Positions 1-35,938 of a stretch of 37,418 bases of DNA are shown piece after piece (position 1 is the first letter of the stretch; every line of letters starts with the position of its first letter). The stretch is from the IMG/VR virus record IMGVR_UViG_2695420585_000012; one strand, given 5' to 3'. Origin of the DNA: a virus (Duplodnaviria > Heunggongvirae > Uroviricota > Caudoviricetes). The notes beneath the pieces were generated by a model. It was not told where the DNA came from and made no database searches. It was given only the letters and a program-made list of their open reading frames with translations. A program made the translations under genes and the position numbers.

Positions 1-258
1 ATGCAAACCGTTATTTTTGGTCGTCCGGGTTGCCCTTACTGTGTGCGTGCAAAAGATCTGGCTGAGAAATTGAGCAATGAACACGATGATTTTCAGTATC
101 ACTATGTAGATATTCGTGCGGAAGGGATCACTAAAGAAGCTCTACAACAAAAGGCAGGTAAACCCGTAGAAACCGTGCCGCAGATTTTTGTCGATCAGCA
201 ACATATCGGCGGCTATACCGATTTTGCTGCATGGGTGAAAGAAAATCTGGACGCCTGA
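1..258 (+). CDS. grxA: Glutaredoxin 1
   Basis: 85-aa ORF with CPYC redox motif; near-identical to recalled E. coli GrxA; synteny with ybjM and ybjL. Confidence 0.9.
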   Translation: MQTVIFGRPGCPYCVRAKDLAEKLSNEHDDFQYHYVDIRAEGITKEALQQKAGKPVETVPQIFVDQQHIGGYTDFAAWVKENLDA

Positions 259-267
259 TCGTCTGAC

Positions 268-300
268 AAGCCCTCGCGTTGAGGGCTTTACTGATTTTTT
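268..300 (+). terminator. Rho-independent terminator between convergent grxA and ybjM
   Basis: Hairpin AAGCCCTC-loop-GAGGGCTT followed by a T-run, directly after the grxA stop. Confidence 0.5.
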
Positions 301-665
301 CTGTGCTGTGGTTTAAACAAACTACTGATAAATAAGAAACACAGTGCCCCCAGCGCACACCAGAACACCGCACTTAATAACCATGCCAGCTCTTGCCAGA
401 ATGAGCGCGTCGGTGAAAAAAACAGCCGCATAATGAGCATCGAACAGGGTGCCGCCAGCATTGCGCCAAACAGAGGTTTCAGGACTTCTCTACGCTGTGA
501 AAAGAAGCTGGCGACTGCTCCAGGAAGAATGAAAAATAGCAAGCCGATTTCAGGATGCCCGGCAGCCCGAAAAGCGCCTTTCATGTGCGTCGCCAGAAAA
601 AGGCACACCACAATGAAGAGGACAAAACAGCAGATTGCCCCCGCCCAACGTTGTTTATGTTTCAC
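288..665 (-). CDS. ybjM: Inner membrane protein YbjM
   Basis: 125-aa hydrophobic ORF; size and position between grxA and ybjL match the E. coli locus. Confidence 0.75.
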   Translation of the reverse strand: MKHKQRWAGAICCFVLFIVVCLFLATHMKGAFRAAGHPEIGLLFFILPGAVASFFSQRREVLKPLFGAMLAAPCSMLIMRLFFSPTRSFWQELAWLLSAVFWCALGALCFLFISSLFKPQHRKNQ

Positions 666-934
666 TCGTTCCTCCTGACACTGCGTCTATCGAACACATT
701 TTTCGCCAGTGTGGCGTTCAGTAAGATAAAGCCGCTTCGCATTCCATGCTAATATAGGCCAACGCAATTCATATAGCCGTTGATACCTAATGTGATTACA
801 CTAGTAAAATATATTGTTACTTTACTATCGTTTAGGTGCGCTGAATGAATCTGCGCCCTGAATTCTGGTAAAAAACATTATCGTAAATTACCATTTCTTT
901 CAACAGCTTACTAGTAAACAAGAAGTTAGCCTCC

Positions 935-2620
935 GTGAATATAAACGTCGCCGAATTGTTAAATGGGAATTACATTCTGTTATTATTTGTGGTCCTCGCG
1001 CTTGGGCTATGTCTCGGAAAGTTACGACTTGGTTCGATCCAACTGGGTAATTCCATTGGCGTTTTAGTCGTATCGCTGTTATTAGGCCAACAACATTTCA
1101 GCATTAACACCGATGCGCTTAATCTTGGCTTTATGCTGTTTATTTTCTGTGTTGGGGTTGAAGCCGGACCGAACTTTTTTTCCATTTTTTTTCGCGATGG
1201 GAAAAATTACCTAATGTTAGCACTGGTGATGGTTGGCAGTGCGCTGGTGATCGCCTTAGGGTTAGGTAAGCTGTTTGGCTGGGATATTGGCCTGACGGCC
1301 GGTATGTTAGCAGGCTCTATGACGTCGACACCGGTTCTGGTCGGTGCTGGCGATACACTGCGTCATTCCGGCATGGAAAGCAGGCAGCTCTCACTGGCAC
1401 TGGATAATCTGAGCCTCGGGTATGCCTTAACCTATTTAATCGGTCTGGTGAGTTTGATTGTTGGTGCGCGTTACTTGCCGAAATTGCAGCATCAGGACTT
1501 ACAGACCAGCGCCCAGCAAATCGCCCGCGAACGTGGCCTGGACACTGATGCCAACCGTAAGGTTTATTTACCGGTGATCCGCGCCTATCGCGTCGGCCCG
1601 GAGCTGGTGGCCTGGACCGACGGCAAAAATCTGCGTGAACTGGGTATTTATCGACAAACCGGCTGCTACATTGAACGTATTCGACGTAACGGGATTCTGG
1701 CAAATCCAGACGGTGATGCCGTGCTACAAATGGGCGATGAAATAGCGTTGGTAGGCTATCCCGACGCCCATGCCCGACTCGATCCCAGCTTCCGTAACGG
1801 TAAAGAAGTTTTCGATCGTGACCTTCTCGACATGCGTATCGTCACTGAAGAAGTGGTCGTTAAAAACCATAACGCTGTAGGTAAACGTCTCGCACAACTG
1901 AAGTTGACCGATCACGGTTGCTTCCTTAACCGCGTCATTCGTAGCCAGATTGAGATGCCGATAGATGACAACGTCGTGCTTAACAAAGGTGACGTTTTAC
2001 AAGTCAGCGGTGATGCCCGTCGCGTAAAAACCATCGCCGATCGCATCGGCTTTATCTCGATTCACAGCCAGGTCACTGACCTGCTGGCATTTTGCGCCTT
2101 CTTTGTTATTGGGCTGATGATCGGGATGATCACCTTCCAGTTCAGCACATTCAGTTTCGGCATGGGGAACGCTGCCGGGTTGTTATTCGCCGGAATTATG
2201 CTGGGCTTTATGCGTGCTAACCACCCGACCTTCGGTTACATTCCGCAGGGTGCATTAAGCATGGTGAAAGAGTTCGGCTTGATGGTGTTTATGGCAGGCG
2301 TTGGTCTGAGCGCCGGTAGCGGTATTAATAACGGCCTGGGCGCGATTGGCGGTCAGATGTTGATTGCCGGATTGATTGTCAGTCTGGTGCCCGTGGTTAT
2401 CTGTTTCTTGTTCGGTGCTTATGTATTGCGAATGAACCGCGCGCTGTTGTTCGGCGCAATGATGGGCGCACGTACCTGCGCGCCGGCAATGGAGATCATC
2501 AGTGATACAGCTCGCAGTAACATCCCGGCGCTGGGCTATGCGGGCACCTATGCAATCGCCAACGTCCTGCTGACGCTGGCAGGGACAATCATCGTCATGG
2601 TATGGCCAGGATTAGGATAA
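935..2620 (+). CDS. ybjL: Putative transporter YbjL (AAE family, two TrkA-C-like domains)
   Basis: 561-aa ORF with GTG start; membrane N- and C-terminal halves around a soluble central region; matches recalled E. coli YbjL. Confidence 0.85.
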
Positions 2621-2731
2621 AACTGAAGTTGCCCTGAAAATGAAATTTTTTTGCACAACCGCAGAACTTTTCCGCAGGGCATCAGTCTTAATTAGTGCCA
2701 CTGCTTTTCTTTGATGTCCCCATTTTGTGGA

Positions 2732-7821: not shown

Positions 7822-8250
7822 CGTTGGCCCCGCTTCTCTGAATCGCTTTATACCGCCATTCCAGCACTTCGGTCAGCGGCATAACGTCAGTAACGGATGG
7901 CGGCCAGTGAAAGATGGTGGCGATATCAGCCACCAGATCGTCAACCGTCAGGCTGTCGGTAAACCGGCAAGCACCGACTTCTTCAACAAAAAAGTGACAA
8001 CCTCAACCGACATGGCAGTGAGATCTGCCGGGTCCATCTCTGCAATTTCCTGTGCAGTCAGTGCCGGACTGGAGATGCGGGGGATCACGGTCATCATCGC
8101 GTTCACATCCATATCCATAATGGCCTGCAGGCGTGTACCGCGCAGCGCACCGGACTGCGGTTTACGCAGCACAATTTCGGTAATTTCTGTTTTACCGCGC
8201 TTGATAGGGGTATCCAGTTGAATGGTCTTTTCAGTCTGCTTATCGCTCAT
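7814..8250 (-). CDS. E+E': Tail assembly chaperone E+E' (-1 programmed frameshift product)
   Basis: TTTTTTG heptamer at about 7985-7991 in the E frame; the -1 frame is then open for 57 codons and stops at TGA overlapping the T start codon. Confidence 0.6.
7948..8250 (-). CDS. E: Tail assembly chaperone gpE
   Basis: 100-aa ORF upstream of T; ends ...VTFLLKKSVLAGLPTA with the slippery heptamer inside its 3' end. Confidence 0.8.
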   Translation of the reverse strand: MSDKQTEKTIQLDTPIKRGKTEITEIVLRKPQSGALRGTRLQAIMDMDVNAMMTVIPRISSPALTAQEIAEMDPADLTAMSVEVVTFLLKKSVLAGLPTA

Positions 8251-8304
8251 TTTGTTGTCCTGTAAATTAGGTTCTGGCGCGGAATCCCGCGCCGTTCAGA
8301 TACA

Positions 8305-8820
8305 TCAGAGGCCGAGGGCGTTGCGGTGCGCTTCCATCAGGTCCACACCGTCCACAATTTCCACCATGTTGATAAGGTCCACTTCATAGAGCACCTCACC
8401 ATTGATGGTCAGCTTCGCGTAGCTGTTGGTACTGGTCACTTTGGTGGTGTTGCTTTCGCCCGTCTTCCACTCACCGGAATCCACTTCTTTGTGACGTCCA
8501 CGCACCACAAGCTCCACGGCCTGCACTTCCCCGGTATCGTCACGCTGGATAGAGCCGGTAAAGCGCAACTGGATGCCATCCACCGTGGCTTTGCCCATCT
8601 GCTTAAACAGCAGCAGTTCAGTACCACCAATGGTAAATTCTGTGTCCAGCGCACTGTCATCAAGCCCCAGATCCACATCCACTGCCCCCGGCATTCCGCC
8701 ACCGCGATACTTCTCATATTTGCGGGTGAATTTCGGCAGCGTCAGCGACTCAACGATCCCCTGCCAGTTGTTCCCGTCGTTAAACAGGTTCAGGTGTTTT
8801 AATTTGCGTGGTAAAGCCAT
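8305..8820 (-). CDS. FII: Tail tube protein gpFII
   Basis: 171-aa ORF, P2 FII-like sequence and position. Confidence 0.9.
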   Translation of the reverse strand: MALPRKLKHLNLFNDGNNWQGIVESLTLPKFTRKYEKYRGGGMPGAVDVDLGLDDSALDTEFTIGGTELLLFKQMGKATVDGIQLRFTGSIQRDDTGEVQAVELVVRGRHKEVDSGEWKTGESNTTKVTSTNSYAKLTINGEVLYEVDLINMVEIVDGVDLMEAHRNALGL

Positions 8821-10144: not shown

Positions 10145-10720
10145 TCAGGGGGATTCATTACTCTTATTTGCCGGAAATTTTCTATAAATTGTGGAAACAC
10201 CCACATCAAAAATCAGTGCAATACGCTGTCTTGATTCTCCGGCCTCGAGTAAACGCCCAATCTGTGCCCACTGTTCGGTGGTCAACTTAGGACGGCGTCC
10301 ACCTATTCTGCCTTTGGCACGAGCTGCTGCAGCCAGCCCTGCCCTGGTACGTTCAACTATCAGTTCGCGTTCCATTTCAGCCAGGGCACCCATGACATGA
10401 AAAAAGAAACGGCCCATTGGGGTACTGGTATCAATACTGTCAGTCAGGCTTCTGAAATTCACACCACGCTGGCGCAACTCTTCTATCAGCGTAACAAGAT
10501 GCCGCATACTGCGCCCCAACCTGTCCAGCTTCCAGACAACCAGCGTGTCTCCTGCCGATAGTGTCCTGAGTAGTTTTTTCAGCCCCGGTCTGTCGGACTT
10601 AGTGCCACTGATTTTGTCCTCAAAAATCCGCTCACATCCCGCGCAGTTCAGTGCATTACGTTGCAAATCGGTGTTCTGGTCATTTGTTGACACGCGTACA
10701 TAGCCAATAAGCATGATCAT
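10145..10720 (-). CDS. Serine DNA invertase (Hin/Gin/Pin/Cin family)
   Basis: 191-aa ORF; N-terminal resolvase catalytic region (GYVRVSTNDQ) and C-terminal HTH; adjacent to an inverted-repeat-bounded fibre segment. Confidence 0.85.
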   Translation of the reverse strand: MIMLIGYVRVSTNDQNTDLQRNALNCAGCERIFEDKISGTKSDRPGLKKLLRTLSAGDTLVVWKLDRLGRSMRHLVTLIEELRQRGVNFRSLTDSIDTSTPMGRFFFHVMGALAEMERELIVERTRAGLAAAARAKGRIGGRRPKLTTEQWAQIGRLLEAGESRQRIALIFDVGVSTIYRKFPANKSNESP

Positions 10721-15206: not shown

Positions 15207-15781
15207 ACCGGGCCTCCGGTTGTATCGCCGCCTTTCAGGACGCCAGTATGCTGATGCGCATCAACCACGATCCCGTTAGAACTCATCGCTCCGCCGCCCT
15301 GGGTAACGCCACCATTGATCACCACTTCGCTGTTAATGCGCGTGCGGTCAGCCTCCAGTACAAACTCACTGGTTTTCATGGTGATGTTGTCAGCGGCCTC
15401 AATGACCATTGATTTGATGCCCCTGACATACCAGCGTCCGGTGGCGGGTTCGTATTCAAACCAGCCACCGTCAGGATGTTCTGTCACGCAGGCGTCCGCC
15501 GACGTCGACGGTGGCGCGAACTGATTCGAATAGATGGCGGGTAACGCAAAGGCGGTTTCCAGATTGCCGCCCAGACTCAGCAGCACCACCTGCTCACCTT
15601 CCGATGGTCGCCACCATGTGCGGGCATTCCCGGCACGCAGCGTCAGCCAGCTGATCCAGTTGGTTTCAAGCTCGCCCGTTTTCACCCGGCAAAGCCAGTT
15701 TTCCCTGTCCACTTCGGTGACTACCCCAGTGCGGATCAGGTTGGTGATAAGGCGCATGATTTCGGTTAATTGTGCGTTCAT
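15203..15781 (-). CDS. V: Baseplate spike protein gpV
   Basis: 192-aa ORF, P2 gpV-like; first gene of the fibre/baseplate operon. Confidence 0.8.
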   Translation of the reverse strand: MNAQLTEIMRLITNLIRTGVVTEVDRENWLCRVKTGELETNWISWLTLRAGNARTWWRPSEGEQVVLLSLGGNLETAFALPAIYSNQFAPPSTSADACVTEHPDGGWFEYEPATGRWYVRGIKSMVIEAADNITMKTSEFVLEADRTRINSEVVINGGVTQGGGAMSSNGIVVDAHQHTGVLKGGDTTGGPV

Positions 15782-15826
15782 AGGGAAAGGTTGCCATCAG
15801 GGGAAGAAAGGCGGCAGTGCTGCAAC

Positions 15827-15846
15827 TTGTATCAGTGCTGATACAA
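15827..15846 (-). promoter_or_regulatory. Candidate Ogr-binding dyad of the late promoter for the V-W-J-I-H-G operon
   Basis: Perfect palindrome TTGTATCAG-TG-CTGATACAA (TGT-N12-ACA core) in the S-V intergenic gap. Confidence 0.5.
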
Positions 15847-15849
15847 AGA

Positions 15850-16296
15850 TCACCCCGCCAGCCATTGCAGAATCATGTCGCTGGTCATTGCCTCAACATC
15901 ATCATTTACACCCAGCAGGCGGCGCTCTGCGTAACGGACCTCCGGTCCTTTGCGACTGACGCGATCACGCAGGCCGTAATGGTGAACACGGGCAATACGC
16001 TGCACCTTGCCTTCAAACTGTACGCTGGCAGAGTCGGCGCTGGCGGCAGTTTTCAGGTATTTTGTGGTGCGCAGCTTTGCAAACATCTGACGTTTGATGC
16101 GGCCTTTTTTGCTGCGTGCTGTTACCCTGCGCGGTTCATAACTGCTGCCATCTGGATTGCGCTGCATCCTGATATTCTGCTGCTGTGTCCGGCGCAGTTC
16201 CTGCGCCAGCTGGCGCATCATGCGGCTTCTCGTGGCTGGTTCCAGATTCGCCAGCAAGGCACTCAGCCAGTCGTCCACCTTCTGCAGTTCAGCCAC
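15850..16296 (-). CDS. S: Tail completion protein gpS
   Basis: 148-aa ORF, P2 gpS-like. Confidence 0.8.
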   Translation of the reverse strand: MAELQKVDDWLSALLANLEPATRSRMMRQLAQELRRTQQQNIRMQRNPDGSSYEPRRVTARSKKGRIKRQMFAKLRTTKYLKTAASADSASVQFEGKVQRIARVHHYGLRDRVSRKGPEVRYAERRLLGVNDDVEAMTSDMILQWLAG

Positions 16297-16741
16297 GTTT
16301 CACCGTCCACATTTCTTCAGGTTCATCGGGTTCTGCTACAGCTTCAACGCTCGACACACTGCCGTCAGTACTGACCAGCACACGTTCCGTCAGTTGCAGG
16401 TTAAGGCTGATATCACAGACATCGTTGCGCAAAATATCCACCTCAAAGGTGAATAGCTTTTCCCGTAACGCCGGGTTATTGATGGCATCGGGCTGGTTAT
16501 CCCGAAGCCACAGTAAAACCGGGGCCATCAGCAGATTCTGGTCGCCGCTGAAATCCTCTATCACCACGTTCAGGGTATAGCGGTACTCCCATGACATGGA
16601 GCTGGCCCCCGTGGCAACCAGCGAACCGTTATCCACAAACAGATGCAGTTTGTCCGGGTTATTGCGGACATAAGGCACCGCTTTATTGAGGGCGTGGCGC
16701 AGGGATTGTGGTTTGTTCACTGTTTCGCTCCTGACACGCAA
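16289..16741 (-). CDS. R: Tail completion protein gpR
   Basis: 150-aa ORF, P2 gpR-like. Confidence 0.8.
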   Translation of the reverse strand: MRVRSETVNKPQSLRHALNKAVPYVRNNPDKLHLFVDNGSLVATGASSMSWEYRYTLNVVIEDFSGDQNLLMAPVLLWLRDNQPDAINNPALREKLFTFEVDILRNDVCDISLNLQLTERVLVSTDGSVSSVEAVAEPDEPEEMWTVKRG

Positions 16742-16973
16742 TAATCATGTCCACTTTGTCTGCACAGACCGCCCAGGCGGCCTCCGTTTCATCCAGCAAC
16801 GCGTTCAGGTCACCGTTAGTGCGCGGCGCTGCCTGCCCCAGCCGACACGGCGTCATTCGCGGACAACCACTGACGGTAAGCTGCACCTCCGGTGAGTGTG
16901 GGGCGTTCCCGCAGCCGGATAATGTCAGCAGGCAAAGGAGTATCAGCCCAGCGGCGTAAATCCTCGTTCTCAC
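16683..16973 (-). CDS. lysC: Outer-membrane spanin lipoprotein LysC (Rz1-like), nested in an alternate frame
   Basis: ORF overlapping the 3' part of lysB and 5' part of R in another frame; lipobox-like LLTLSGC; Pro-rich. Confidence 0.6.
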   Translation of the reverse strand: MRTRIYAAGLILLCLLTLSGCGNAPHSPEVQLTVSGCPRMTPCRLGQAAPRTNGDLNALLDETEAAWAVCADKVDMIIACQERNSEQTTIPAPRPQ

Positions 16974-17244
16974 GTTTCAGTTCCTCAATCCGGTGTTGTC
17001 GTTGTCTCAGCAGTACACTGGTCTGTTCTGCTTCGGCATAGAGCCGCGCCTGCTCCCGGTTATTGGTTTCAGTCAGAATGGACAGGCTGATAAGCTGGCT
17101 GTTGCTCTTTGCCAGTGACTGGCTTTTGCTCCGAAGCTCGTCTGCCTGCGTGCTGATGGTCTGGCTGGCATCAGCCAGCCGCCACGTCTGCCAGCCCAGC
17201 GCCGCCAGTAATAACGCCAGCACAACCAGCAGCAAACGGTTCAT
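16816..17244 (-). CDS. lysB: Inner-membrane spanin LysB (Rz-like)
   Basis: 142-aa ORF with N-terminal TM segment then coiled-coil region; P2 lysB position. Confidence 0.75.
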   Translation of the reverse strand: MNRLLLVVLALLLAALGWQTWRLADASQTISTQADELRSKSQSLAKSNSQLISLSILTETNNREQARLYAEAEQTSVLLRQRQHRIEELKRENEDLRRWADTPLPADIIRLRERPTLTGGAAYRQWLSANDAVSAGAGSAAH

Positions 17245-17690
17245 GCTGCTACCTGTTGCGCAATCTGATTACGGATCATCCAGAAGGCAATAACGGTCAG
17301 CAGATAAAAGACCAGGGTAATAGCCCACCCCGTCCAGGCGAAACTTACGACAATCAGCAATCGCATCACCCAGCTGATAAATACGTTTTCTTTTCGGGTA
17401 ATGGTCTTTAGCAAAGATGCCCTCAACTCCTGCCAGAGCGGGCCGTTCTTAATTAACGCAGCCAGTGCTACCGGAATTACCGCCCATGTCAGCAGACAGG
17501 CTACCCAGACACCGGACGCTGCCAGTACCGGAAAAATCCCCTGTGGATACACCATTGCTGCGATCAACAGCGCCATCCATAACATCAGAAACAGCCCGCT
17601 GATTACTTTCTTTTTCATTTCAGTTTGCTCCCTGTAAGCACCAGGCCATCTCCCGCGCACGGCGGTTATCCAGCCCCTGATTAAAAACAC
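17241..17690 (-). CDS. lysA: LysA lysis-timing membrane protein
   Basis: Multi-TM ORF following the endolysin; track start is GTG, true start may be the internal MKKKVISGL Met. Confidence 0.65.
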   Translation of the reverse strand: MFLIRGWITAVRGRWPGAYREQTEMKKKVISGLFLMLWMALLIAAMVYPQGIFPVLAASGVWVACLLTWAVIPVALAALIKNGPLWQELRASLLKTITRKENVFISWVMRLLIVVSFAWTGWAITLVFYLLTVIAFWMIRNQIAQQVAA

Positions 17691-18132
17691 CTTTCACATA
17701 AACCCAGCGCGGCAACTGTCGGCACGCATCCGCCCAGCGCCGCTGATTGAGTAATTTCACCAGTGTGGAACTGCAGGCATTGCCCATTCCCACGTTGAAG
17801 GCAAACGACACCGCAGCGTCATACACCTTCTGCGGCGGCTGTTGCTTCACACACCTTTCCAGCGCCCGCTCCACACGCAGCACGTTGGAGATCAGCCCTT
17901 CTGCTGCCTGTCGCTCCGTAATGGTTTTGCCGGGAATGACGCCCGACGTATTACCAATGCCGTCGGTCCAGACACCCGCGCTGCACTGATACGGCTGCAG
18001 ACGACAGCCTTCGTAATCAGCAATCAGTTTCAGCCCCTCCACGGAGGTGTGAAGCTGCTGAAAACCCGGCAGCGTGGCAGCAATAGCCAGCACGGCCCCG
18101 ACAAGGCAGCGTTTAACGATTGATGGATTCAT
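17620..18132 (-). CDS. K: Endolysin gpK (phage lysozyme)
   Basis: 170-aa ORF, P2 K-like sequence between holin and lysA. Confidence 0.85.
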   Translation of the reverse strand: MNPSIVKRCLVGAVLAIAATLPGFQQLHTSVEGLKLIADYEGCRLQPYQCSAGVWTDGIGNTSGVIPGKTITERQAAEGLISNVLRVERALERCVKQQPPQKVYDAAVSFAFNVGMGNACSSTLVKLLNQRRWADACRQLPRWVYVKGVFNQGLDNRRAREMAWCLQGAN

Positions 18133-18328
18133 AGTCCTCCCGCGAAATCTGCCCGTCGCGCAGAAGCTGGTAGGCTTTGTGTTTGTAGTACCAGTTGATA
18201 GCCAGCATCAGTACACCAATCATCAGGCCGCCCAGCGTTGAGGCATCCTTGATGGACAAATCGCCCAGCCAGGCCAGCACGACGGCGATGCAATACGTGA
18301 TAAAGGCGCTGATTCGCTCAAGCGTCAT
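18113..18328 (-). CDS. Y: Holin gpY
   Basis: 71-aa ORF with two hydrophobic segments and charged C-terminus, immediately upstream of the endolysin. Confidence 0.6.
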   Translation of the reverse strand: MTLERISAFITYCIAVVLAWLGDLSIKDASTLGGLMIGVLMLAINWYYKHKAYQLLRDGQISREDYESINR

Positions 18329-18331
18329 AAT

Positions 18332-18535
18332 TCAGTCCCATAGCTGGACGGTCTGCACGGTGGTGGTGGTCGGAATGTCCGGCAGCTCCACCTGCAGCCC
18401 GTGAGGTAAAAAGGGGCCGTATTCGGCAAGCCCCGGATTTGCCTTCAGTACCTGCTCCGTGACCCCCTGCGTGCGCCCGTAATGACGCCAGCAAAGCGCG
18501 TCCACCGTGTCATACTGATGCGCACGCACTTTCAT
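18332..18535 (-). CDS. X: Tail protein gpX
   Basis: 67-aa ORF, P2 gpX-like size and position. Confidence 0.75.
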   Translation of the reverse strand: MKVRAHQYDTVDALCWRHYGRTQGVTEQVLKANPGLAEYGPFLPHGLQVELPDIPTTTTVQTVQLWD

Positions 18536-18999
18536 CAGATAAGCTCCACTGTGCAGTGCGGCGCATCCTGCACCCGGCTGATGGCCCAGCGGGCGTCACG
18601 CCACAAATCACCGCTGGCTTCCGCCAGTTCTTCGCCTCGCTTCACACCGGATGCCGTGGCGTCATAGTCCTGGTATCGTTCGTTGAGCATGGCGCGTGCC
18701 CAGCAGTAAACCGCGTTGAAATAGTGCTGAATGCGCTCACTTTTCCCGTCCAGCTGTTCCGCCGGAACCTCTGCCAGCGAGGCATACCCCAGCATCTGCT
18801 GGCGTCTGCGAAACTCATACAGCTCTGCGTTGACCTCCGAAATTGCCGACAGGGCAACCTGCTTTAAACGCGGCTGCGTCACCGTGCCGTCAGTGCGCAT
18901 GACACTGCGAAACTCCGACAGGTCCACATCAGGCCAGAACGGCGTATTTCTGATGATTTCCGCCTGTTCCGGTGCCTGTTCTGGCGCAACAAACTTCAT
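18535..18999 (-). CDS. L: Head completion protein gpL
   Basis: P2 gpL-like; start placed at ATG (MKFVAPE) preceded by AGGAG; track ORF to 19062 begins with GTG and contains that Shine-Dalgarno. Confidence 0.75.
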   Translation of the reverse strand: MKFVAPEQAPEQAEIIRNTPFWPDVDLSEFRSVMRTDGTVTQPRLKQVALSAISEVNAELYEFRRRQQMLGYASLAEVPAEQLDGKSERIQHYFNAVYCWARAMLNERYQDYDATASGVKRGEELAEASGDLWRDARWAISRVQDAPHCTVELI

Positions 19000-24649: not shown

Positions 24650-24988
24650 TTAACAAACAGCGTATAAACCATCAAATCCAACGGAATGAACCTTTTTTGA
24701 TGCTACTTCATTGCTACGGCGTTGGATCACTTTTGCAATACTTTTTAAAATTGAAGGGGATGCATTGCGAACCTTAACCTGACTCAAAACTTTGGTTACA
24801 CCGAATTTCACTACCAAAACACCAAAGATTTCATCAGAGTATGATTCTGAAATTGAATAAACACCGCTCAGGTCTAAATCTACGGTATACCCTTCTTTAA
24901 TGAACCCTTCAATCTTGTGTCGTTGGGGGATAGCCTGATTGCGCGAAGCCAGGTCACCCTCGGGTAACTTGTATGCGATTTTGTTCAT
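24650..24988 (-). CDS. STAS-like (anti-sigma-factor-antagonist-like) small protein, cargo
   Basis: 112-aa ORF whose start overlaps the stop of the upstream ATPase gene; central DLSGV...SISESYSDEIFGVL segment resembles STAS/DUF4325-type domains (recalled, not searched). Confidence 0.45.
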   Translation of the reverse strand: MNKIAYKLPEGDLASRNQAIPQRHKIEGFIKEGYTVDLDLSGVYSISESYSDEIFGVLVVKFGVTKVLSQVKVRNASPSILKSIAKVIQRRSNEVASKKVHSVGFDGLYAVC

Positions 24989-25962
24989 TACTCTCCTCCT
25001 AACGCCCGCATTATTTCCATAAGCTGAGGGTCATTTTCTTCGCTATCTTTATCGACTGCCAGTTCATGAATCTTAAAACGGCAAGAAATTGCTACACCCG
25101 GCCATTCAGTACGTAATTCAGTATAGCTCACTTCATCACCTATTGCTTCTAAGCATACATTTCCTGAAGCCAGTTGCAATTCCCCATTATATGTTTTTAT
25201 CAATTTCATCAAGTGATATAACCCAAGCCCTTGATGATTATTATCTTTTTCTTTGACCGAAACCCCGTGACCAAACACACTACCCCCAATAAAATCCTGG
25301 GGAAGTTGCTGTGCCCAATCATCCTGCAAATCAGCATGCTTAGATGAATGTCCCTCTTGAATACACCATGCGATCGCATCCTGGTGAGTCTCAATTCCGG
25401 GTATACCAGCTCGCCGCAATTCTCGGAGAAATCCTAACCCACAGTCCGCCAAAGAAAATTCTAAATAGTGCTCTTTTCTTTGTGTGTGGGGTACAGCCGA
25501 ACGTTGTGCAAAAGAAAAACCCGTTGATTTTCCATGCGACCAAACGTTATCGTGAAGCTCACCTATAACATGTGTTAGATCTGTAAGTCCCTTGGGATAA
25601 TCTCTCGGATCACGATCAGGGAATGTTAACTGCCTTACACAACTGTTAATACTACCAGTGGCAACGTCAACAGCTTCAACATTGGTTAATGCTGTAACCA
25701 AACTGTAATTTCTCCCAACATTTACACGTTCCTGTTGATACTGATCCTCGCCCCATAAAGCACCATGTAAATTGATAGCTCGCATATAGTCAGGGCATGA
25801 CAAAACGCAGTTATCTTCGGTAATTTTGTGATGATTCACGTAAGCTGCTAAGACAGTGATAAAACCAGGATGCCAATGGTTGTTTGGCAATTGCAATTCA
25901 TTAGTTTCCTTTTGATGAAACGCAGCGGTATGCACAATAGCGTCTTTTAATCCTAACCCCAT
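24988..25962 (-). CDS. GHKL/Bergerat-fold ATPase (histidine-kinase-like, RsbW/SpoIIAB-type) with N-terminal extension, cargo
   Basis: Visible N-box ELHDNVWSH, G1 box DCGLG and G2 box GLGLYHL; lower GC than structural genes. Confidence 0.6.
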   Translation of the reverse strand: MGLGLKDAIVHTAAFHQKETNELQLPNNHWHPGFITVLAAYVNHHKITEDNCVLSCPDYMRAINLHGALWGEDQYQQERVNVGRNYSLVTALTNVEAVDVATGSINSCVRQLTFPDRDPRDYPKGLTDLTHVIGELHDNVWSHGKSTGFSFAQRSAVPHTQRKEHYLEFSLADCGLGFLRELRRAGIPGIETHQDAIAWCIQEGHSSKHADLQDDWAQQLPQDFIGGSVFGHGVSVKEKDNNHQGLGLYHLMKLIKTYNGELQLASGNVCLEAIGDEVSYTELRTEWPGVAISCRFKIHELAVDKDSEENDPQLMEIMRALGGE

Positions 25963-26294: not shown

Positions 26295-27464
26295 TTACCA
26301 ATCCATGTTTGCGGCATTATCCATCTCACGAGTTAAGTAATTAACAAATAAGTCCATATTCCTTTCTGATTTCATCGCCTCCGCATAGGTTCCATTAGTT
26401 ACGTAAGATAGTATTAAAGGACATCCAGATTCAATATAAATTTTTGCTGGGGACAGTTCTCCCTGCCACAAATTTTCAAGAAAATCGTTAATTAATTGCA
26501 TTGCTTCAGGTGCCAAAAAATGCACACCATTTCCAAACTTGAAACGTTCTTTATTTTCTCGATGAGGCAGCAATAGTGGCACAGCCCCTACACTTGAGTG
26601 AAATTCCAATGCTTGCCCATCCTTACCGAAGGCGCCATGGGCTACAAAATTACGCACCTGTTTTCTGAGTATAAGTAAACGATCATAGAACAATTTTAGA
26701 CTGGAAGAGTTAATATCAATGGCTAATTTGAATTTCTCCCCCCATTCTTTTCCAACTTTATCAGCCACATCATTCCCATTTTTTATCTCACCCTTCAAGA
26801 TTGCAATAAGAATGAAAACATGCTCGGTCCAATTGAAAAATGACTCAATTGCAGACGTTGCTAACCACATAGCCTCTCTTCGGAGTTCAATTATCTTATT
26901 TGATTGTTCAAAAGTGGATTGTAACAGGCTGAAAAAATTATCAGACTTAAACTCACTATCAACTTCCAGTTTAGACTCTTGGCCAGCAGCAACTTCATCA
27001 AGCTTCTGTTTATATAGCTCTAAAAAATAGCAAAACCTATCATAAAGAGAATTAGCATTGTTATTAACATTTAGATTTGAAGTCTTTGCTGCATTGTCTG
27101 CAAGCGAGTCAAAAAAATTCGTAGCAGCTTTAACCCCTGCGCAAATATGTCTCAAAACAGTTTTAGCTTGCTCTATATCATCATCACTCTTGATAAATAT
27201 ATCTAAACCAAGTTTACGATGTTCTATAATTACGACAGTCCCATCAATCCGGACTGGGATAGAAAAAGAAATCTTCTCATCAACCCCACGATTTTTAAAT
27301 TTCAGTAAATCTACCAAAAGAAAATAAACGAGATAATACGGAGGTAATGAGTCTCCCAAACCCGAGCGCTTACCCCAAAAATATTCATCAAGCTCGGCAG
27401 ACTCCATTGTCCCTATGACTCTTCGGACGCGTTCTTCAACTTTAGCCAGATCCATTCCCCACAC
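26295..27464 (-). CDS. Hypothetical cargo protein with HEPN-like RNxxxH motif (possible Abi-type RNase)
   Basis: 389-aa AT-rich ORF between the SOS-regulated small gene and cos; motif ILRKQVRNFVAHG. Confidence 0.55.
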   Translation of the reverse strand: MWGMDLAKVEERVRRVIGTMESAELDEYFWGKRSGLGDSLPPYYLVYFLLVDLLKFKNRGVDEKISFSIPVRIDGTVVIIEHRKLGLDIFIKSDDDIEQAKTVLRHICAGVKAATNFFDSLADNAAKTSNLNVNNNANSLYDRFCYFLELYKQKLDEVAAGQESKLEVDSEFKSDNFFSLLQSTFEQSNKIIELRREAMWLATSAIESFFNWTEHVFILIAILKGEIKNGNDVADKVGKEWGEKFKLAIDINSSSLKLFYDRLLILRKQVRNFVAHGAFGKDGQALEFHSSVGAVPLLLPHRENKERFKFGNGVHFLAPEAMQLINDFLENLWQGELSPAKIYIESGCPLILSYVTNGTYAEAMKSERNMDLFVNYLTREMDNAANMDW

Positions 27465-33125: not shown

Positions 33126-34082
33126 ATGTCAACACACAAAATCACATTTCGCCATGTTGATGATGCAATGAAAACTGTAATCATGCAGAATCGTGGAGGA
33201 CAACAGGTCATTGACCGAATTTTGAAAGCTTATGGCTTCACTTCACGTCAAGCATTCTGTAACCACTTAGGGATATCCCAAAGCACAATGGCGAACAGAT
33301 ATGCTCGTGATACCTTCCCTGCCGACTGGGTCATAATCTGCAGCATGGAAACTGGCGTGTCGGTTGAATGGTTGGCATTTGGTACCGATAACACAGTAGA
33401 GGCTGTCACACATAATACAGAACAGAACCACCATAAAGATGGTAAGGAGATTCATTCTCTCACTTTAGACACAAAATCCCCAAATGAGAACAATACTCAC
33501 CGAAAGAACGAGAGCCTCATTGAGGTTAATCAAGGAGGAAAAGCGGCAATCGAGCGAATAGTTATCGCCTATGGATTTAAGACAAGGCAAGCTCTAGCGG
33601 ATCACATTGGTGTTTCAAAAAGCACATTAGCCAATCGTTACATGAGAGATACCTTTCCAGCTGATTGGATCATCCAGTGCGCACTTGAAACCGGAGCTTC
33701 ATTAATGTGGCTAACAACCGGTAATGGTCCTGTCTTTGAAGACGCTAAGAGCGATATTATTGCTATCACACGGAAAAAAGTTATAAATGGTATGTTGTTT
33801 GATACAAATTATCTCCCTTTTGATAAAACCATGTTACCCAGCAAGGTGAAAAAACCCATATCTATAGTAGATGAAGGAAATGTATATCTTGCAGACAAAG
33901 CATTTGATGAAGTAACCGATGGAAAATGGTTAGTTGAAATCGAAGGAAAATTTAGTGTTAGAGATCTAACCAGAATTCCAATTGCAAAAGTAAAAGTATC
34001 TAATGAAAGTACAACTTTTGAATGTCTATTAGCGGATATTAATGTAATAGCAAAATGTTTTGGTATATATAAGGATATTTAA
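33126..34082 (+). CDS. CI-like immunity repressor with duplicated N-terminal domain
   Basis: 318-aa ORF; two ~62-aa repeats each with an AYGF...ANRY.RDTFPADW...ETG...WL.G pattern, ~58% identical to each other, then a C-terminal domain; resemblance to 186 CI is from memory. Confidence 0.7.
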   Translation: MSTHKITFRHVDDAMKTVIMQNRGGQQVIDRILKAYGFTSRQAFCNHLGISQSTMANRYARDTFPADWVIICSMETGVSVEWLAFGTDNTVEAVTHNTEQNHHKDGKEIHSLTLDTKSPNENNTHRKNESLIEVNQGGKAAIERIVIAYGFKTRQALADHIGVSKSTLANRYMRDTFPADWIIQCALETGASLMWLTTGNGPVFEDAKSDIIAITRKKVINGMLFDTNYLPFDKTMLPSKVKKPISIVDEGNVYLADKAFDEVTDGKWLVEIEGKFSVRDLTRIPIAKVKVSNESTTFECLLADINVIAKCFGIYKDI

Positions 34083-34865
34083 ATGACAGACCTTCCTAAC
34101 AATGAAGAGATGCTTCTTTATGCCAAAAGGAACCTTGAGTTTTTCATTAAAACATTCTACTTACACTTTTATTCTGACATTGAGTTATTGCAAGCCCCAG
34201 CTCAACCTGAAACAGAAGAACAACGACTGAAACGCTTAATATCCGAAAAAGAGAGTTTCTTTCAATCTGGCTTGGTAATACTTTTTAATTCTGCTGAAAT
34301 ATATCTAAAGTCTATAATTGCTGAGCATAGTGTTTATTTACTTTTAAAAGAAGTAAAAGACTGCTATAAAAACAAATCTTTTTTCGAATGTTCAACATTA
34401 GACGCAACCGAACTACATAGAATAGCACAAAGTATCAGTGGGCGAAATCTTTCACCGCGCTTTAATGAAATTTATGATATTTTGCGCAAAGAAAGAAATA
34501 AAGTAATTCACTTAGGTAAAAGTAATAATAAAGAAATACGTAAAGACTTTTTAAGTGCATTTCTAATTTTTCGAGAGGAGATATATCAAGAGCCTCTTAA
34601 TAACCTGGTTCATTGCTTGATAAATGATAAAAACATGCCTGAACAAAAATTAGTCGAGGCAAAGAAAAACTATGCAGCAAGCATTATAGACATGATGAAA
34701 ATATTTTTTCCTTTAGATGATATTTTAGCCAACATATATAAGATTGATGGAAAACCGAAAAATTGGAATGTTTGTACTAATTGTCAAACTCCGGGGAAAA
34801 CACTCGCCGTCATATCTAAAACTAAATCAATTTGCTTATCATGTGATTTTAAAATAGGATTGTAA
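34083..34865 (+). CDS. Hypothetical cargo protein with HEPN-like RNxxxH motif and C-terminal CxxC...CxxC ribbon
   Basis: 260-aa AT-rich ORF starting immediately after the repressor stop; motif ILRKERNKVIHLG; C-terminal CTNCQ...CLSCD. Confidence 0.55.
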   Translation: MTDLPNNEEMLLYAKRNLEFFIKTFYLHFYSDIELLQAPAQPETEEQRLKRLISEKESFFQSGLVILFNSAEIYLKSIIAEHSVYLLLKEVKDCYKNKSFFECSTLDATELHRIAQSISGRNLSPRFNEIYDILRKERNKVIHLGKSNNKEIRKDFLSAFLIFREEIYQEPLNNLVHCLINDKNMPEQKLVEAKKNYAASIIDMMKIFFPLDDILANIYKIDGKPKNWNVCTNCQTPGKTLAVISKTKSICLSCDFKIGL

Positions 34866-34867
34866 AC

Positions 34868-35938
34868 ATGGAAAACTTAAAATACATACCTTTTAATCAA
34901 GTAGATTTTTCTGATGTTTTTTTTGACTCTTTAAAATCCGATTATGCTCATGGGTTTATTGATTGGTTCCATTCTAAATGTAAATCAAATGATTATGCAT
35001 ATGTCCTTTATGATGAACAAAATAAAATTGATGGTTTTTTGTATCTAAAAACAGAAGTAGGTATCATTGAAGATACAAAACCAAATATTCCTGATGGTAT
35101 TCATCTAAAAGTTGGAACATTTAAATTTAATCCAAAAGGAACTCTTCGTGGTCAACGATTTTTAAAAAAAATATTCGATCACGCTCTAGATAATAATGCT
35201 AACAATATATATGTGACTGTTTTTGAAAAACATGACTACTTAATTAGACTATTCAAAATCTATGGCTTTATAGATATTGGAGTAAAAGAATCTGAAAATG
35301 GTGTAGAGCGAGTACTAATAAAAGAAATGAATAGTAATGCTCTTACGGGCGATATACTGTCAGATTATCCATTTATTAATAACAGAGGCAGTGAAAATAA
35401 ATTCTTGCTTTCAATATACCCCGTATTTCATACTCGTTTATTCCCTGACTCAAAATTAATTACAGAGTCACCAGACGTTGTTGCTGATGTATCATATGCA
35501 AATAGCATTAGAAAAGTATATATTTGTGGCATGTCAGATGTTGAATTAATGAAGCCAAACGATATAATCGTTATATACCGAACATCCGATAATCAAGGGC
35601 CTGCATATTACCGTTCTGTTGCTACTTCTTTATGTGTAGTAGAAAAAGTTAGAAATATAAACTCTTTCGTTACAGAGAAAGAATTTCTAAATTACTGTTC
35701 TAGATATTCTGTTTTTACAGAATCTGAGCTTAAAAGTTTTTATAGAACAAAAAAATACCCATATATTATAAGCTTTACATATAACCTTGCTTTGCCCAAA
35801 AGACTAAATCGTGCTAAACTTATTTCTGAAGTAGGATTATCCCCGCGAGCTTACTGGGGGATCATGAAGTTAACAAACGAACAGTTTAATAGCATTATTA
35901 AACTTGGTGGCGTCAATGAAAGTATTATTGTCAATTAA
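34868..35938 (+). CDS. Hypothetical cargo protein, possible GNAT-like N-terminal domain
   Basis: 356-aa AT-rich ORF 2 nt after the preceding stop; segment GTFKFNPKGTLRGQRFLKKIFDHAL...YGFIDIG loosely resembles a GNAT acetyl-CoA-binding region; C-terminal half unassigned. Confidence 0.45.
   Translation: MENLKYIPFNQVDFSDVFFDSLKSDYAHGFIDWFHSKCKSNDYAYVLYDEQNKIDGFLYLKTEVGIIEDTKPNIPDGIHLKVGTFKFNPKGTLRGQRFLKKIFDHALDNNANNIYVTVFEKHDYLIRLFKIYGFIDIGVKESENGVERVLIKEMNSNALTGDILSDYPFINNRGSENKFLLSIYPVFHTRLFPDSKLITESPDVVADVSYANSIRKVYICGMSDVELMKPNDIIVIYRTSDNQGPAYYRSVATSLCVVEKVRNINSFVTEKEFLNYCSRYSVFTESELKSFYRTKKYPYIISFTYNLALPKRLNRAKLISEVGLSPRAYWGIMKLTNEQFNSIIKLGGVNESIIVN

Follow-up and report, generated by a model that had tools for sequence, protein, structure and literature searches.

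Two-component spanins are encoded in three architectures: embedded, as in lambda; overlapped, as in P2; and separated, as in T4. P2 is an experimentally tested example of the overlapped class (Kongari et al. 2018, PMC6139136). Lynch et al. describe P2 lysC as beginning out of frame within lysB and ending within R, and treat LysB and LysC as the equivalents of Rz and Rz1. Lambda Rz1 has a mature length of 40 aa with 25% Pro (10 in 40) and one Cys, and its gene lies wholly inside Rz (Kongari et al. 2018, PMC6139136).

The locus described here has the P2 layout. It lies in a 37,418-nt stretch of viral DNA, hereafter the window, whose ORF listing contains a minus-strand ORF at 16683..16973 of 96 codons, with a GTG start and a TAA stop, translated as MRTRIYAAGLILLCLLTLSGCGNAPHSPEVQLTVSGCPRMTPCRLGQAAPRTNGDLNALLDETEAAWAVCADKVDMIIACQERNSEQTTIPAPRPQ (96 aa). 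We conclude, with a probability of about 95%, that this ORF is lysC, the P2-type (Rz1-like) o-spanin gene of a P2-like (Peduoviridae) prophage in E. coli. The first-pass annotation had placed a 96-aa ORF at the same coordinates, without naming the strand, and had described it as an embedded gene in an alternate frame across the lysB/R boundary. The coordinates and the frame are as it reported, with the ORF lying in the +1 frame of lysB and ending within R. The arrangement, however, is of the overlapped class rather than embedded, as only the 5' part of the ORF lies within the i-spanin gene. For a 99.4% identical E. coli locus (NZ_CP027591.1), RefSeq likewise notes "substantially overlapping although not fully embedded". 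The genes and segments of the region are as follows.

18113..18328, minus strand: holin of the HP1 family, 71 aa (PF16080, 36.7 bits vs 28.8)
17620..18132, minus strand: endolysin (Phage_lysozyme) with a hydrophobic N-terminus (PF00959, 137 bits)
17241..17618, minus strand: membrane protein at the lysA position, 125 aa, DNZ54_00345 family (NF038378, 125 bits)
16816..17244, minus strand: lysB CDS, i-spanin, 142 aa (TIGR03495 phage_LysB, 171 bits vs 92.75; PHROG 89)
16816..16973, minus strand: lysB/lysC dual-coding segment, 158 nt common to both, lysC in the +1 frame of lysB
16721..16815, minus strand: lysC-only segment, 95 nt, from the lysB stop to the R start
16683..16720, minus strand: lysC/R dual-coding segment, 38 nt, the same length as in P2
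16728..16732, minus strand: R Shine-Dalgarno sequence AGGAG, 7 nt upstream of GTG 16720, within lysC codons C-Q-E
16289..16720, minus strand: tail completion gene R, 143 aa from GTG 16720 (PF06891, 160 bits)

Holin, endolysin, the lysA-position gene and lysB lie upstream of lysC, and R and S lie downstream, the order seen in P2 (Y-K-lysA-lysB-lysC-R-S). A script run on the window placed R in the +1 frame of lysC, just as lysC is in the +1 frame of lysB. All three forward frames are used in turn, never three at once, and the last 133 nt of lysC lie beyond the lysB stop. lysC and R each have their ribosome-binding site within the gene before them. LysB has a hydrophobic N-terminal transmembrane domain (MNRLLLVVLALLLAALGW) and contains no Cys, whereas P2 LysB has two. 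The lysA-position gene, whose stop overlaps the lysB start by 4 nt, is labelled antiholin or membrane protein in relatives. A TTG start for R at 16741, as called by PGAP in CP019275.1, was rejected in favour of GTG 16720 on the grounds of the Shine-Dalgarno sequence, the start of the GpR profile and the P2-like 38-nt overlap; PF06891 begins at residue 9 of the longer TTG ORF (16289..16741), and R is annotated at 432 nt in relatives.

The holin is named "HP1 family phage holin" by RefSeq in the 99.4% identical locus. The endolysin N-terminus, MNPSIVKRCLVGAVLAIAATLPG, resembles a signal-anchor-release (SAR) domain, and the holin and endolysin genes overlap by 20 nt (17620-18328). The lysis cassette may be of the pinholin/SAR-endolysin type rather than the Y/K type of P2.

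The identity of the lysC product was clear from every family model it matched. It scored 122.5 bits, where the cut-off is 27, against the NCBIfam equivalog NF038368 ("P2_Rz1, Rz1-like lysis system protein LysC"), in an alignment that spans positions 2-85 of the 85 in the profile, and 56.3 bits against Pfam PF23793 LysC (cut-off 27; positions 1-68 of 69), the only Pfam family matched at E<=0.01; the lambda Rz1 model was not matched. PHROG 952 (E 9e-29) and PHROG 456 (E 3e-18), both "Rz-like spanin", were also found, and a search of PDB chains with the LysC sequence gave no match at E<=1. The alignment with P2 LysC that the first-pass annotation had suggested as a check runs end to end (BLASTP, 43% identity over 92 aa, ungapped, E 1e-26). 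Together with the family scores above cut-off and a consensus lipoprotein signal, this homology bears out its reading of the ORF as a spanin lipoprotein. The exact 96-aa sequence is already public, in a 216-member cluster named "Rz1-like lysis system protein LysC", and RefSeq labels the gene in the 99.4% identical locus "lysC: Rz1-like lysis system protein LysC". The gene is thus already known, and forms with lysB an ordinary P2-type overlapped spanin pair.

P2 LysC (NP_757382.1; gene 8202..8492 of NC_001895) matches the protein described here in its 96-aa length and its aligned start; both carry the lipobox Cys as residue 21, along with four more Cys in common and the motif TNGDL, and P2 lysC likewise runs in the +1 frame inside lysB with a 38-nt R overlap. 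It differs in having an ATG rather than a GTG start, a lysB overlap of 146 rather than 158 nt, a CAGC lipobox with Thr at +2 in place of LSGC with Gly, and 10 rather than 8 Pro in the mature part. Closer relatives are the Felsduovirus/Wadgaonvirus-type LysC proteins (SEN8 AQT27290.1, KP12, 500465-1) and those of RefSeq E. coli prophages, at 74-95% aa identity. These share the GTG start, the LSGC lipobox and the overlaps; the Shine-Dalgarno region reads cGAGGAactgaaac in four of five relatives and carries two changes in ST13-OXA48phi12.1. They differ by few substitutions and in how the gene is annotated, as 96, 82, 57 or 38 aa or not at all.

The lipoprotein signal was judged by a scripted PROSITE PS51257-type rule and by eye. 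The rule calls for a Lys or Arg within the first seven residues, a Cys between positions 15 and 35, and six residues without D, E, R or K followed by [LIVMFWSTAG]x2-[LIVMFYSTAGCQ]-[AGS]-C. LysC passes every part of it, with Arg2 and Arg4, Cys21, and residues 11-21 reading ILLCLL-TL-S-G-C; the h-region is uncharged at residues 5-18, giving a 14-residue hydrophobic core. The LLTLSGC string reported at first pass is present, and its Cys is residue 21. The predicted features of the protein are as follows.

16914..16973, minus strand: lipoprotein signal peptide, residues 1-20, with n-region MRTR and h-region IYAAGLILLCLLTL
16911..16922, minus strand: lipobox L18-S19-G20-C21, with the Cys21 codon at 16911..16913 and Gly at +2
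16686..16913, minus strand: mature LysC, 76 aa, with four further conserved periplasmic Cys (C37, C43, C70, C80) and TNGDL

An Asp at +2 acts as a Lol-avoidance (inner-membrane retention) signal; the +2 residue of LysC is Gly and not Asp, and LysC therefore lacks an inner-membrane retention signal. The mature protein is predicted to begin with Cys21 in acylated form. The u-spanin literature gives the lipobox consensus as [LVI][ASTVI][GAS]C and LSGC as the wild-type lipobox of the T1 u-spanin, and the LSGC of LysC agrees with that consensus.

The first-pass annotation had regarded the true start of the ORF as uncertain. We consider it settled as GTG 16973, the sole canonical start that keeps the signal peptide and the homologue of the P2 start. 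Two sequence elements lie immediately upstream.

16977..16979, minus strand: TGA in frame with lysC, two codons upstream of the GTG, read from the sequence
16982..16986, minus strand: lysC Shine-Dalgarno sequence GAGGA, 8 nt upstream of the GTG, within lysB codons I-E-E-L

The in-frame TGA means that lysC cannot start farther upstream, and between GTG 16973 and Cys21 there is no further ATG, GTG or TTG. In the alignment, GTG 16973 falls at the position of the ATG that opens lysC in P2 and Wphi. All 12 aligned relatives start at this codon, the P2 group with ATG and the Felsduovirus-like group with GTG, and all 12 have GAGGA or GAGG at an equal distance from it. The position of the Shine-Dalgarno sequence and start is kept although the overlapping LysB residues differ there (IEELKRE vs ITRLLNE). 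The homologous start is the one annotated in P2, Wphi and SEN8 (96 aa) and in the Burkholderia phages Momento (94 aa) and KS14 (92 aa).

Several records nevertheless carry a shorter gene, and we considered whether the real product could be a non-lipidated LysC made from an internal codon: CTG 15 (82 aa), ATG 40 (57 aa) or a codon near 59 (38 aa). RefSeq/PGAP calls a 249-nt lysC of 82 aa from CTG codon 15, 42 nt downstream of GTG 16973, in NZ_CP027591.1 (L017:1570-1818), the 99.4% identical locus, and within the 90% cluster the 81-82-aa forms rank with the named members found most often, one of them on at least 1000 contigs. The gene is called as 57 aa from ATG codon 40 in KP12 (L001:2345-2518) and as 57 aa in MLG42, as 52 aa in Midge and MDG94-186, and as 38 aa from near codon 59 in 500465-1 (L002:2402-2518) and also in ST13-OXA48phi12.1; CP019275.1 (L016:19399-19474) has no lysC CDS annotated. 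Set against these calls, the 82-aa form begins MLTLSGC and fails the lipoprotein rule because its Cys is at position 7, where the rule requires 15-35, and no Lys or Arg occurs in the first seven residues, while the 57- and 38-aa forms lack the lipobox Cys altogether. The NF038368 alignment begins at residue 5 of the 96-aa form, and the upstream start is both annotated in the five phages named above and conserved with its Shine-Dalgarno sequence across lineages despite differing LysB residues. Wrong o-spanin starts are moreover a documented annotation artefact: among 528 spanin systems, 64 had wrong starts and 196 had unannotated o-spanins, so mis-annotation of the lysC start is to be expected (Kongari et al. 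2018, PMC6139136). We regard a short product in place of the lipoprotein as very unlikely. Equally improbable, in our estimate, is that CTG 15 or ATG 40 gives a second, non-lipidated isoform besides the full-length lipoprotein; if true, such an isoform would modulate spanin stoichiometry or lysis timing, in agreement with the old "lysis regulator" genetics of P2.

The lysC frame is widely conserved among Peduoviridae. A tblastn search with the 96-aa LysC found it in 276 phage records, 236 of which cover at least 80% of the query, with hosts in Escherichia, Klebsiella, Salmonella, Yersinia, Erwinia, Pseudomonas, Burkholderia and Shewanella. Loss of the overlapping frame in related phages, which the first-pass annotation had named as evidence that would count against the gene, is contradicted by these 276 records. 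An alignment of 12 diverse relatives shows no variation in Cys21, C37, C43, C70, C80 or TNGDL; over the range from Escherichia to Burkholderia the frame and the five Cys persist, with the most distant relatives at 35-48% identity, and frequent stops or frameshifts were not seen in the lysC frame of relatives. Identity to P2 is about 42-43% for LysC vs 29% for LysB, making LysC the better conserved of the two.

Substitution patterns were counted in six gap-free relatives. In the 95 nt that encode lysC only, 10 of 17 variable sites fall at lysC codon position 3 (binomial p = 0.027; small sample). The density of variable sites is 0.19 in the lysB/lysC overlap vs 0.365 in the lysB-only part, and this lower variability fits dual constraint. 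In the 38-nt lysC/R overlap, six of nine variable sites are at R codon position 3; R therefore constrains the overlap while the LysC tail drifts, which accounts for the lack of conservation of the LysC C-terminal tail, including IPAPRPQ. The Pro-rich tail of the first-pass annotation thus holds weakly for this copy, with three Pro in the last seven residues, but is not a feature of its relatives.

Taken on its own, the presence of an open frame here could reflect nothing more than the codon usage of lysB and R, with no protein made. Among the six-frame ORFs of the window, 83 reach at least 96 aa, many of them clearly spurious, and as a control the lipoprotein rule fired on 7 of the window's 1226 ORF/start combinations, so that lipobox-like strings do arise by chance and the pattern alone is no proof. 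ORF length alone and the lipobox pattern alone are accordingly weak evidence for lysC. Synonymous-codon resampling of lysB and R, however, yielded a +1 ORF that bridges the gap and reaches at least 96 aa in only 32 of 5000 replicates (0.6%), the curated HMM scores are 2-4 times cut-off, the frame and its five Cys are kept from Escherichia to Burkholderia, and the 95-nt segment that contains no other gene has a coding-type substitution pattern. A chance frame is effectively refuted. At the level of sequence, we take homology and conservation of the frame to be the decisive evidence for lysC.

Other elements were sought in the same region. Putative opposite-strand ORFs on the plus strand (16686..16895, 16747..16959, 16892..17041, 16643..16744 and 17063..17293) gave no PHROG match at E<=0.01, and the plus-strand ORFs across lysC were treated as spurious. 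No known Rfam-type RNA family was found in 15500..18800 at E<=0.1, and a terminator scan of the minus strand found none in 16683..16973. Within its own lysC-only segment P2 has an annotated "putative transcription attenuator" hairpin at 8399..8417 (L006:2100-2118), with an 8-bp perfect stem and a z of about -2, that is not conserved here: a 7-bp hairpin at 16760-16800 of the window lies about two codons away from the P2 site and has a z of -0.8 to -0.9 vs shuffles. The 12-sequence consensus fold of the lysC-only segment reached -2.3 kcal/mol without compensatory pairs. A conserved RNA element in this segment was rejected, as the hairpin is no better than shuffles and shows no covariation in the 12 relatives.

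LysC resembles lambda Rz1, an outer-membrane lipoprotein, in its predicted type and location, in being encoded in the +1 frame relative to the i-spanin gene, and in its proposed role in the last step of lysis. It differs in having a mature length of 76 aa, 8 Pro in these 76 residues (10.5%, moderately Pro-rich), four periplasmic Cys and a gene that lies only partly inside lysB. The features that define the lambda Rz1 family (a wholly embedded gene, sequence similarity and a short domain of ~25% Pro) are absent from LysC, which is a putative functional analogue of Rz1 and not a member of its sequence family. As LysC is moderately Pro-rich and has no lambda Rz1 Pfam match, the analogy rests on the cited P2 experiments.

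The records of P2, Wphi and several Yersinia phages label LysC "non-essential; regulation of lysis" or "lysis regulatory protein", and on this older P2 annotation LysC would be a regulator of lysis timing rather than a structural spanin subunit. Later literature instead has P2 LysB/LysC as a tested overlapped two-component spanin (PMC6139136) and as Rz/Rz1 equivalents, and the combination of outer-membrane lipoprotein signals with a type-II inner-membrane partner suits a periplasm-spanning complex. We consider a purely regulatory LysC extremely unlikely.

For LysC as a structural o-spanin, we propose the following course of events. Translation from GTG 16973 via the GAGGA within lysB would give a 96-aa prolipoprotein, whose signal peptide is predicted to direct Sec export and processing by Lgt, LspA and Lnt, with cleavage before Cys21 and acylation of that Cys. 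Lol transport would then deliver LysC to the inner leaflet of the outer membrane, a destination we infer from the Gly at +2 in place of the Lol-avoidance Asp. By homology to P2 LysB/LysC and analogy with lambda Rz/Rz1, the periplasmic domain of LysC would bind the C-terminal end of inner-membrane LysB to form a periplasm-spanning complex. Once the peptidoglycan is gone through the action of holin and endolysin, the complex would complete lysis by fusing or disrupting the inner and outer membranes. For this allele, lipidation, sorting to the outer membrane, binding to LysB and membrane fusion are thus predictions. Disulfide-linked spanin oligomers are proposed in general terms in the spanin literature; since LysB here has no Cys and mature LysC has four conserved ones, disulfide-stabilised oligomerisation, if needed, would have to occur via LysC.

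The window is a piece of E. coli chromosome, and the prophage in it is integrated beside ybjL, because the left flank of the window (1-2700, grxA-ybjM-ybjL) is 100% identical to several E. coli chromosomes. No tRNA or tmRNA genes were found anywhere in the window. The late region is about 96-97% identical to Klebsiella phage KP12 and related records.

Several other genes of the prophage merit mention. A plus-strand ORF of 356 aa at 34868..35938 matches the PADLOC candidate defence family PDC-M11A (433 bits), and the 260-aa ORF at 34083..34865 on the same strand has a weak DUF3644 match (E 2.4e-5); the ORFs of 34083-35938 had no Pfam match at E<=1e-5 and no NCBIfam match at E<=0.001. The pair sits between CI-type repressor and integrase genes and is probably anti-phage defence cargo of the prophage. 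The repressor ORF (33126-34082, plus strand, 318 aa) contains two separate Phage_CI_repr helix-turn-helix stretches and one Phage_CI_C, and may reflect a duplicated HTH or an over-extended start. Two minus-strand ORFs between the portal gene and the replication region, at 24988..25962 (324 aa) and 26295..27464 (389 aa), are further prophage cargo; searches of NCBIfam and PADLOC (E<=0.001) and of Pfam (E<=1e-5) gave no match for either.

A resolvase-type DNA invertase gene (Resolvase + HTH_7; 10145-10720, minus strand) adjoins the tail-fibre genes, and in CP019275.1 (L016) a Hin-type invertase adjoins oppositely oriented tail genes; an invertase beside tail-fibre genes suggests an invertible host-range switch. 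CP019275.1 itself, a 37.4-kb circular E. coli "plasmid" held in the phage collection, contains a related P2-like prophage together with the chromosomal genes recN, bamE, smpB and ssrA, and many of its CDSs are frameshifted. It has the look of a piece of chromosome that was mis-circularised, not of a plasmid or phage genome.

Roughly a fifth of complete E. coli genomes (1023 of 5426) carry near-identical DNA of the lysB-lysC-R stretch, and lysC here brings no new biology. Its value is for annotation: lysC is easily missed or mis-started, the 38-, 57- and 82-aa calls remove or cripple the lipoprotein signal, and automated lipoprotein or spanin calls on such mis-started entries would fail. The lysB-lysC-R arrangement is also a compact case of three consecutive genes in three frames, with ribosome-binding sites embedded in the upstream gene.
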